This document shows, one piece after another, positions 38,329 through 41,022 of a DNA stretch of 41,409 nucleotides. How positions within the stretch are numbered: the first letter of the stretch is position 1; each line of letters opens with the position of its first letter. The notes beneath the pieces are model-generated. The model was given only the letters and a program-made list of their open reading frames with translations, ran no database searches and was not told the DNA's origin. The stretch lies in the NCBI RefSeq assembly GCF_003334815.1, contig NZ_QOWO01000033.1; one strand, given 5' to 3'. The DNA is from Escherichia coli. Its GTDB lineage: Bacteria; Pseudomonadota; Gammaproteobacteria; Enterobacterales; Enterobacteriaceae. Both the position numbers and the translations under genes were made by a program.

Positions 38329-41022
38329 TTATTGCTTAGTAAACGGCGCGAAGATTTCGCTAAATGCGTACTTCGGTGCCTGTTCTTTAGTCAGGCCGTG
38401 GAATTCCGGAGACAGGTTAGTGCCGCCCGGCAGGTCGCGCGCGATTGACCAGATACCAACCATACCGAGATTACGCTTCTGCGCATCCTGCATGACCAGA
38501 CGAGCATCAGAGAGATAGAACACCTCGCCCTGAACGTCGTTCACGCCAACCATCGGCGTGGTACCCATCATAGCGTCAATTTCTGCATCGCTCTTATTGG
38601 GATGGAGGCCTTTCAATTGTGAATGCAGGTTGGCAATCGCAGACGTTGCACACTTACCGTGAATGTTCTGGCCTTCGGTATTTGCAGACTGACAAATCGC
38701 GTTACCGTAGTCCATTGTCATCACGTTCACACCCGCCAGCTCAACACCTTTCGCTTTGGCATCGCTCAGGACATTCATCCCTTCCGGCGTCAGGCCAGTC
38801 GGCAGAATTGGCAAGGTGTACCAGATAGCAATATCTTTGCCTTCTGACTTCCATTTATCCTGCACTTTCTTCACAGCAAGGTTACGACGTTCAATAGATG
38901 CCTGATCCGCAACCCAGGTGCCTTCGATATCGAAGTCCAGGACTTTGAGGTTCAGGTTATCAACGATGTCATAATAATGCTGCATCAGATCGTCTACGTT
39001 CTTACAGGAAGCAGCCAGCGGAGCGTTGTTAGCACCACCGATAGACAGCATCACATCGCCGCCAGCCTCACGCAGAGCTTTGATTTTGCTGTACTGAGCG
39101 TAATTCTGCATACCGTAAGCGGTACCCCATGTCGGCAGACAGGTGTTCGCATCTTTACTCACCACAAACGCCAGCGTGAAGTGGTTGACGTTATGATTCT
39201 TAGCCAGCGCAGCCAGATCCGGGATCGTATTCAGCGTAAAGTCGACATACGGTGCATAAACGTGTTTCGGCCACGCTTTCTTCGGCGTACCTACGCGCTC
39301 TTTGGTTCCGGTCCAGTCAACAAAAACACGCCACGGGTTGCTGTCAGAAGGAGAAACTTTCTGCACTTTACTCTGAGAAATGTAGTTCACACCGTTAAAG
39401 CGAATCAGCGTATCGCTGGCATAAAGCGTTTCTGGATTAAACTGCGGCGCATTATTCAGCTCTTCGTTGCTATAGCTCTGAGCCTTACCTAACGGCTTCC
39501 ACGGGCGGCTATTGCTACCGGTGGCGTTTTGGTTCGCCACCAGAGCAGGGTTGTCACTTTGCGTCCAGAACAGCGCTTCATAAGCCTGCCCATCAACAAC
39601 AACGCGATCACCTTTCACGTACACAGTGGATGCGGACCATGCTTTCGCCGGTTCGTATTTCTTCCACGGGTTATCGCCGCCCGGGACAAAGCCCCATGCG
39701 TCTTGATCGACAGAAGTTTTATAATGTGCATCGTTATAATCTACGATGCTGTCCGCGCTGTACGCTTTGCTGGCCTGGAAACCATCCGCAACAATGACGC
39801 CGCCGTTATCAATTTCACAGGTAGTCGGGTTACCGTACTGACTCAATTCCGCAGCGGTAGCTGTACGCTCGAGACGCCATGGGTTATTGGAGTTTTCAGC
39901 GCTGGTACCCCGTGGGCAATCTTTAGACCCAACCCACCAGGCGTTCTTGTAAACATTACCATTGAAAATAACATGGTAAATTTCGCTACCTTCCTGGCCG
40001 CTCCACGCTTGCAATGAGTAATCGTTAACGCTATCCGCTGGTGTTGATGGCTCGCTGTTATCCGGAGTTGGGGTCACCGGTGTTTCCGGAGTTGGATCAA
40101 CCGGAGTCACAGCACCGCCATTATTATCCGGCTTAACGGAACAGGAGCCAGGGTTACCATACTGGCTGATTTCTGTTGCCGTTGCCGCGCGAACATAACG
40201 CCATGGGTTACTGGCATCGTTTTCTTTCGCATCGCCTGGGCAATTTGCCGCGCCTACCCACTAGGCGTTCTTATAAATGCCGCCGTTATAGATAACGTAC
40301 CATGTAGAAGAACCTTCCTGACCTTTCCAGGCTACTACAGCATAGTTGTCGTTTGACTTATCAGCTGGGGCTGGCTGAACATCAGGAGCCGGTTTAACGT
40401 CCGGTGCCGGTTTCACATCCGGTGAAGGCTGTGGTGCTGAAGTACAGGACTGTGGATTACTGGTTTCTGAGATTTCCGTTGCCGTAGCGGCACGAACATA
40501 ACGCCATGGGTTGCTGGCATCATTGCTTTTCGCATCACCCGGACAGTTAGAAGAGGCTACCCACCAGGCATTTTTATATACCGCACCATTAAAGACGACA
40601 TACCAGGTCTGACCGCCCTGCTGTTTATTCCAGGCAACTACAGAAGAATTAGACGGAACAGTGCCCTGTGCTGGTGTAGCCGAACCGCCATTAGCCGGCG
40701 TATTGGATGCAGGCGTATTTGAATTTGAAGAAGATGAGCTGCCGCTCTTTTCGCAGGAAAGTGTATTGCCAAACTGACTAATTTCAGCAGCTGTTGCGGT
40801 ACGCTTTAAACGCCACGGGTTAGTTGCATCATTTGCTTTCGCTTTTCCCGGGCAATTTGTAGAAGAAACCCACCAGGCATTTTCATAAATTTTGCCATCG
40901 AAAATAACCTGATATTTATTACCACCTTGTTGGTTATTCCATGCTTCCATTGCCAATGCTGGCAGAGCGGAACACACCAGCCCCATACCAATCATAGATT
41001 TAGTAAATATATTTAATTTCAT
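38329..41022 (-). pseudogene. chiA: Periplasmic endochitinase ChiA: full 897-codon frame interrupted by an in-frame amber codon at 40261..40263 (Trp to stop within the ...KNAWWVGAAN... repeat)
   Basis: Track ORFs 40261..41022 (signal peptide plus two chitin-binding repeats) and 38329..40110 (remaining repeat plus GH18 catalytic domain) are in the same frame. Manual translation of 40111..40260 is open and continuous. The only interruption is TAG at the first Trp of a motif that reads AWWV in three other copies within the same protein. Confidence 0.8.

Follow-up and report, generated by a model that had tools for sequence, protein, structure and literature searches.

Why does the chitinase gene chiA break off at codon 254 in one isolate of Escherichia coli, when its counterpart in K-12 is read without a break? 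Could the interruption be an error of sequencing or assembly, a marker introduced in the laboratory, or a lesion that circulates in nature? We addressed these questions in a stretch of 41,409 nucleotides from contig NZ_QOWO01000033.1 (assembly GCF_003334815.1), called the window below, which holds chiA (yheB) on its minus strand together with the genes of the Gsp type II secretion system. ChiA is an H-NS-silenced endochitinase that is exported by the equally silenced Gsp system, according to the statement in PMC5797941 that cites Francetic et al. 2000. The stop at codon 254 (W254amber) is very probably real, a loss-of-function allele of chiA that segregates naturally, here in a wild, non-K-12 isolate. 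It is an ordinary gene-inactivating polymorphism, and the lesion is already known: public genomes exist in which the same allele is marked as a pseudogene. We also find that the changed base lies in a Dcm methylation site, a point absent from an earlier note that described the stop from the sequence of the window.

A single amber codon interrupts chiA

Read in one frame on the minus strand, 38329..41022 comprises 897 codons with a sole internal stop, codon 254, besides the normal terminator, and its 2694 nt equal the length of K-12 chiA. The list of open reading frames (ORFs) shows the gene as two entries in this same frame, one of 253 amino acids that begins with ATG (40261..41022) and one of 593 amino acids that begins with an internal GTG (38329..40110). 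The earlier note had joined the two into a full-length ChiA, and both the translation and the K-12 length agree with this. Around the stop, at 40269..40255, the minus-strand letters are aac gcc TAG tgg gta. Three of the four N-terminal repeats have the cores ENAWWVSS, KNAWWVASS and KNAWWVGSKD, versus KNA*WVGAAN (asterisk, stop) at the interrupted repeat; the view that TAG is the only interruption, at a place where the paralogous repeats carry TGG, is thus borne out by the single internal stop and by the repeat alignment alike.

Compared with MG1655 chiA, the gene is identical at 2693 of 2694 nt. The lone difference is a plus-strand C>T at 40262 (window, tacccacTaggcgtt; MG1655, tacccacCaggcgtt), the very base, T in place of C, that had been singled out before; on the coding strand it is one G>A that turns TGG (Trp254) into TAG. 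Alignment to chiA of K-12 and other E. coli, which the earlier note had proposed as a check, gave an intact reference one base away (MG1655 protein, WP_000773156.1). The gene order tufA-chiA-bfd-bfr-gspO is collinear with the MG1655 locus and with that of strain 52F4, introduced below. The window lacks the uninterrupted frame expected of a functional chiA, the break being the TAG at codon 254. Because 2724 of 2727 chiA-bearing genomes are without a 61-mer centred on this TAG, and because a single base separates the gene from that of MG1655, the stop is derived and rare rather than a break in an ORF by chance.

The same allele is present in other genomes

When 5,426 complete E. coli genomes were searched by megablast with the 2694-nt gene, chiA was detected in 3,163. 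Only 52F4 returned the score of an exact match, and K-12 MG1655 and many other complete genomes stand one mismatch from the chiA of the window. We then counted the allele by the 61-mer centred on the stop among 2,727 RefSeq complete genomes. Three contain it: 52F4 (NZ_CM147848.1; calf, Switzerland), F3_13_1_3 (NZ_CP074754.1; bovine, Nebraska, USA) and HCP6S3_I1 (NZ_CM149868.1; pig, UK). All three were annotated by the Prokaryotic Genome Annotation Pipeline as 'chiA pseudogene, internal stop', whereas the MG1655 gene is annotated as intact.

Beyond the complete genomes, the exact 253-residue product is indexed in 52 blocks of a public assembly collection and was found on at least 25 contigs. 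Carriers include the Logan runs SRR33755025, SRR31575204, SRR27314453, SRR20696473 and ERR4317656, a MEGAHIT-style (k141) metagenome contig from ENA and several NCBI drafts. All 25 contigs with the 253-residue product use TAG as the stop, and their flanking haplotypes vary. The contig from GCA_965212685.1 is identical to the window over the 11,149 bases compared, base 32895 included. The lesion had been called strain-specific, a description that no longer fits an allele common to many isolates on at least two haplotypes. The earlier note had left three origins open; of these the real lesion is the one upheld, by its recurrence across independent assemblies, and the engineered marker and the sequencing error both lose ground.

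Origin of the stop at a former Dcm site

What produced the G>A change? In the 41 kb of the window, MG1655 has 136 CCWGG sites, and 40261..40265 is the only one that has been lost. The ancestral sequence here is CCWGG and the substitution is C>T at its inner C, exactly the pattern of a methylation hotspot. The second C of CCAGG is a classical hotspot at which deamination of 5-methylcytosine yields C>T, and the dominant lacI amber mutations arose in this way (PMC12606429); Vsr very-short-patch repair ordinarily counteracts such deamination (PMC2715241). Of 5,426 complete E. coli genomes, 5,368 have the dcm-vsr genes, and from this species-wide prevalence the source isolate is likely to have them as well. 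chiA has 31 Trp codons, of which eight stand in Dcm context; among the eight is, for every one of the four repeats, the first Trp of GCC-TGG-TGG, so that each repeat has a potential amber site.

We consider deamination of 5-methylcytosine the most likely mechanism, and a fairly probable one. The Dcm-methylated inner C of CCAGG would have deaminated spontaneously on the non-coding strand, and the deaminated base would have escaped Vsr very-short-patch repair, by the same chemistry as at the lacI amber hotspots.

Do other Trp codons of chiA show comparable lesions? The truncated products expected from nonsense mutations at 12 Trp codons were looked up in the public assembly index, and all 12 were found. 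Counts are index blocks, with one sampled example per allele, and are shaped by clonal expansion: W131, 42; W140, 185; W153, 93; W232, 29; W254, 52; W362, 1398; W154, 25; W173, 13; W241, 22; W255, 20; W274, 30; W363, 16. The sampled examples at W131 and W362 end in TGA and are not 5-methylcytosine events. A Mann-Whitney comparison of six Dcm-context codons with six others (p=0.002) was dropped for this reason and because a laboratory lineage inflates the W362 count. With the alleles regrouped by the codon of their sampled example, the block-count test without the laboratory-strain allele W362 TGA gave a one-sided p=0.012, a value that clonal spread confounds.

The W362opal allele (GCC TGA TGG) occurs in 24 complete genomes and is annotated as 'internal stop' in DH10B (NC_010473.1). 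Its carriers belong to the DH10B/MC1061 family and include DH10B, NEB10-beta, DHB4, C3026, ER1709, MT102, Origami2 and GB2005. The W362 count is as high as 1398 because the allele belongs to this laboratory lineage; the blocks for the 361-residue product probably reflect ubiquitous cloning hosts.

Two points weigh against a methylcytosine origin. The case for it is circumstantial, since any G>A transition at this base has the same outcome. Moreover, the excess of TAG alleles of the 5-methylcytosine type (W140, W153, W232, W254) reaches only a one-sided p=0.055, and here too clonal spread confounds the test.

Predicted product and domains of ChiA

With translation halted after residue 253, the predicted product would be a Sec-exported fragment of two and a half N-terminal repeats of carbohydrate-binding type. 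Three CBM_5_12-type modules and the GH18 domain would not be made, or would lack a signal peptide if translation restarted. That the stop separates a signal peptide and two repeats from GH18 had been noted before and agrees with our comparison, with the addition that half of the third repeat is also retained. The signal peptide is predicted at about residues 1-24, with cleavage between ALPALA and ME. A Pfam domain search run on the repaired (stop-free) ChiA sequence placed every match, GH18 and CBM_5_12 alike, downstream of codon 254, including a weaker second CBM_5_12 match at residues 415-443 (PF02839, E 0.11). Coordinates are collected in the table.

Table. Position of the amber codon, of the predicted parts of ChiA and of related features in the window.
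Feature	Position	Strand	Evidence
chiA (yheB) pseudogene, 897 codons, one internal amber codon	38329..41022	-	one-frame translation; MG1655 and 52F4 comparison
Amber TAG for Trp254 (TGG), within the third N-terminal repeat (domain 3, literature numbering)	40261..40263	-	
Former Dcm site, CCAGG in MG1655, CTAGG here; 40262 is the inner (5-methyl) cytosine	40261..40265	+	
Coding part of the predicted 253-residue product: signal peptide, repeats 1 and 2, Ser/Pro-rich linker, first half of repeat 3	40264..41022	-	
Predicted untranslated remainder: rest of repeat 3, repeat 4, CBM_5_12 modules, GH18	38329..40260	-	
Four N-terminal ...Y.NAWW...NPW... repeats, residues ~25-400	39823..40950	-	
Paralogous Trp50 codon, GCC TGG TGG, intact, Dcm context, repeat 1	40873..40875	-	
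Paralogous Trp153 codon, GCC TGG TGG, intact, repeat 2; TAG alleles of W153 exist elsewhere	40564..40566	-	
Paralogous Trp362 codon, GCC TGG TGG, intact here, repeat 4; TGA in the DH10B lineage	39937..39939	-	
CBM_5_12 module, residues 461-494	39541..39642	-	Pfam PF02839, E 1.5e-7
GH18 catalytic-domain match, residues 609-805	38608..39198	-	Pfam PF00704, E 1.3e-9
gspC-O type II secretion operon, reported ChiA export route	26747..37389	+	annotation of collinear 52F4 and MG1655 loci

The four N-terminal repeats gave no Pfam match even at E<=10, and NCBIfam assigned a family to neither half of ChiA. Their only relative of solved structure is the N-terminal domain of Chi2, the chitinase of the Yersinia entomophaga toxin complex (6ogd_C residues 24-96, E 7e-13). 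The label 'chitin-binding', which the earlier note gave to these repeats, follows literature usage (PMC11486038) and finds no echo in Pfam or NCBIfam; what the repeats do biochemically seems less settled than this label implies. Seven chitin-binding domains are numbered in ChiA, with domain 4 at residues 362-388 (PMC11486038), and the stop at codon 254 therefore sits in domain 3.

Could the catalytic part be made on its own? The first in-frame ATG past the stop lies inside the GH18 region. A restart at the GTG at 40110 was considered and set aside: only the mechanical ORF of 593 residues speaks for it; this frame lacks a signal peptide, and GH18 is reached before any in-frame ATG. Because the catalytic part lies downstream of the stop and this ORF has no signal peptide, the secreted enzyme could not be made. 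Judged from the reading frames, the strain would have no secreted chitinase/lysozyme although its Gsp secretion genes are intact. All ORFs of the gspC-O operon are uninterrupted, with GspO D16G and GspH R87C as the only changes against MG1655; over all gsp ORFs of the window, which are likewise intact, GspA A323V is the one further change.

Background of the isolate

The earlier note had suggested that an amber suppressor of K-12 laboratory strains (supE44/glnV44) might read through the stop. This idea is moot because the window is not K-12. A comparison over all 41,409 bases finds six positions at which the window departs from MG1655 and six at which it departs from 52F4. The bases at 40262, 36758 and 25600 are common to the window and 52F4, and those at 3856, 24654 and 32895 occur in neither 52F4 nor MG1655. 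No exact match to the full window was found among RefSeq complete genomes. The K-12-specific alleles of gspO and gspA are missing from the window, and three further differences separate it from MG1655; a K-12 origin, considered at the outset, is ruled out by these alleles and by the six differences. The closest matches are livestock isolates and not a K-12 laboratory background. The 41-kb window holds no tRNA gene, and glnV is located elsewhere on the chromosome. To our knowledge amber suppressors are laboratory alleles, unexpected in wild isolates.

Of the three positions seen in neither 52F4 nor MG1655, 32895 C>T changes GspH (R87C), directly adjoins a CCTGG Dcm site on its 3' side and recurs in GCA_965212685.1; 3856 C>T changes DprA (D292N); and 24654 T>G falls between the genes gspB and rpsJ, where a TATAAT box that we take as the promoter of the S10 operon lies downstream of it. 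At window position 28770, in gspD, 52F4 has T>A relative to both the window and MG1655. This is the central W of a CCTGG, so that the Dcm site is kept and GspD is altered (WP_236305688.1).

Decay of chiA and of the secretion system

chiA is absent from 2263 of the 5426 complete genomes (~42%); the prevalence reported in the literature is 47-74% (PMC11486038). Other complete genomes have chiA split by IS1, IS3 or IS5 insertion sequences (IS), and these split genes are independent inactivations by transposition. Examples are EMG2, MG1655_insertion, DLI.6n, SW070919 and NMBU-W12E19, with IS5 in K-12 EMG2 and the MG1655 derivative and IS1A or ISEc52 in the others.

Carriers of the TAG allele show further lesions. 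In F3_13_1_3, gspC is annotated as frameshifted (fetched locus 32731-33545), which leaves both the secretion system and its substrate damaged. In HCP6S3_I1 an IS1 has entered chiA right at its beginning and has duplicated 9 bp of target, window 41013..41021; an IS5 lies between gspC and gspA, each of which is without its N-terminal part; these IS-related lesions are at 18559-19270 and 33288-34485 of the fetched locus. The TAG contig of GCA_037967415.1, seen in 10 samples, has an extra G in the GH18 part (window 38538), which breaks the downstream ORF into 534 and 64 amino acids, and a 1-base deletion just past chiA (window 38296). The Logan carrier SRR27314453 has a gspL of 283 instead of 387 amino acids (5421-6272), with a C>T at window position ~35941 as a candidate premature stop. 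This accumulation of lesions in TAG carriers is the pattern that follows loss of function, and it speaks against both readthrough and selection for a truncated product. The original lesion may have been tolerated since chiA is accessory and H-NS-silenced, after which the locus would decay further.

One origin or several?

In F3_13_1_3 the TAG stands on a haplotype with 12 other chiA differences, and in the window it stands on a K-12-like haplotype. Many TGG strains are two mismatches from the chiA haplotype of F3_13_1_3, and the TGG strain BE2-5 has 11 of its 12 markers, including those that flank the stop 163 nt upstream and 149 nt downstream. The presence of TAG on at least two chiA haplotypes suggests, from haplotype comparison, that the mutation may have recurred; the F3_13_1_3 allele would be either an independent mutation or the product of a conversion tract of <312 nt.

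Alternatives to a natural lesion of probable methylcytosine origin

How do the competing explanations fare? A real lesion that arose once, by ordinary replication error, and spread by homologous recombination with no part for Dcm is the strongest of them, though we regard it as rather unlikely. The flanks of TAG carriers look mosaic, one contig joining a K-12-like coding haplotype to a BE2-5-like promoter, so that recombination is active at the chiA locus; nonsense alleles also exist at Trp codons outside Dcm sites, and the enrichment test is borderline. Against this, a conversion tract behind the TAG of the F3_13_1_3 haplotype would need to be confined between markers only 312 nt apart, the change is precisely at the inner C of CCAGG, a textbook hotspot, and the four Dcm-type TAG alleles outnumber most non-Dcm alleles, which have two routes to a stop (TAG and TGA). 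An error of sequencing or assembly, for instance a nanopore miscall at a Dcm-methylated CCWGG that yields a false TAG, is highly improbable. Methylated motifs are a recognised source of nanopore consensus errors; the changed base sits exactly in such a motif, and a second change, 32895, found in neither 52F4 nor MG1655, directly adjoins a CCTGG site. Yet an artefact should be limited to one assembly or technology, whereas the identical TAG appears in the assemblies of many projects, from complete genomes and drafts to Logan run assemblies and the k141 metagenome contig. A context-driven systematic error should also hit far more than 3 of 2,727 complete genomes; 135 of the 136 Dcm sites in the window are unaltered, and TAG carriers have gathered other lesions in the same system. 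The window itself has the form of a repeat-bounded contig, with one end in a duplicated tuf gene (tufA), as would be typical of short-read assembly.

An amber marker engineered or acquired in a laboratory derivative of K-12 is scarcely credible. The chiA coding haplotype is otherwise identical to that of K-12, and a K-12 laboratory lineage, DH10B/MC1061, does have a nonsense codon at the paralogous Trp362, but that allele is at another codon (362) with another stop (TGA), the gspO and gspA alleles and three more differences set the window apart from K-12, and the known carriers are of calf, bovine and pig origin. Could the stop instead be functional, with the 253-residue repeat-only fragment selected as a lectin or adhesin, or with TAG read through to full-length ChiA? 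We think this very unlikely. The allele has spread to many isolates on two haplotypes, the chitin-binding domains of ChiA are reported to mediate host-cell interaction in adherent-invasive E. coli (PMC11486038), and the gsp genes of the window are intact. Set against these points, only 3 of the 2727 complete genomes that have chiA show the TAG and 2724 do not, whereas programmed readthrough calls for a stop conserved among homologues; stops at neighbouring codons are similarly frequent, which leaves no favoured fragment length; in carriers, gspC, gspL, the start of chiA or the frame of GH18 is subsequently lost, the pattern of a dead gene; and the window has no tRNA and is not of K-12 background. 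Equally doubtful is the broader idea that the fourfold GCC-TGG-TGG makes chiA prone to Dcm-dependent amber mutation and that the TAG alleles at W254, W153, W140 and W232 are selected and not neutral. If it were true, a secreted repeat-only fragment might serve as a lectin or adhesin, or the shut-off of chitinase/lysozyme might be advantageous in livestock-gut lineages.

Implications

On the preferred explanation, a natural null allele that probably arose by methylcytosine deamination, chiA of this isolate and of the other carriers should be treated as a pseudogene, and neither Gsp-dependent secretion of chitinase nor host interaction mediated by ChiA should be expected of them. Beyond annotation the importance is small. 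The locus is a tidy natural case of a C>T at a Dcm site that gives an amber codon, and it illustrates the repeated erosion in E. coli of an accessory, H-NS-silenced gene through nonsense codons, insertion of IS elements and complete loss of the gene. The widely used cloning strains of the DH10B family have a chiA nonsense codon of their own, W362opal.

Comparison with known systems

Wild-type ChiA of K-12 (YheB, WP_000773156.1) shares with the gene described here its locus, synteny, CBM_5_12 and GH18 architecture and, bar one base, its sequence. Its frame is unbroken, whereas here the stop at codon 254 blocks the secreted catalytic part. Among carriers of the same TAG, 52F4 is identical over all 2694 nt of chiA and differs at 6 of the 41,409 window bases; it is not the isolate from which the window derives. 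F3_13_1_3 has the TAG on another chiA haplotype together with the gspC frameshift, and HCP6S3_I1 combines it with IS1 in the chiA start and the IS5-associated truncation of gspC and gspA.

The chiA allele of DH10B/MC1061 is also a nonsense codon at a Trp of GCC-TGG-TGG and is likewise marked 'internal stop'. It differs in lying in repeat 4 rather than 3, in its laboratory K-12 background and in its codon, TGA; the partner of the changed G is the outer C, which is not methylated, hence no 5-methylcytosine event is involved. It is the coding strand that holds the methylated C at the amber hotspots of lacI (CAG>TAG), whereas in chiA the non-coding strand holds it (TGG>TAG) and the dependence on Dcm is one that we infer. 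The substitution is nonetheless the same: C>T at the second C of CCAGG creates TAG in lacI (Coulondre et al. 1978; PMC12606429), as it does in chiA.

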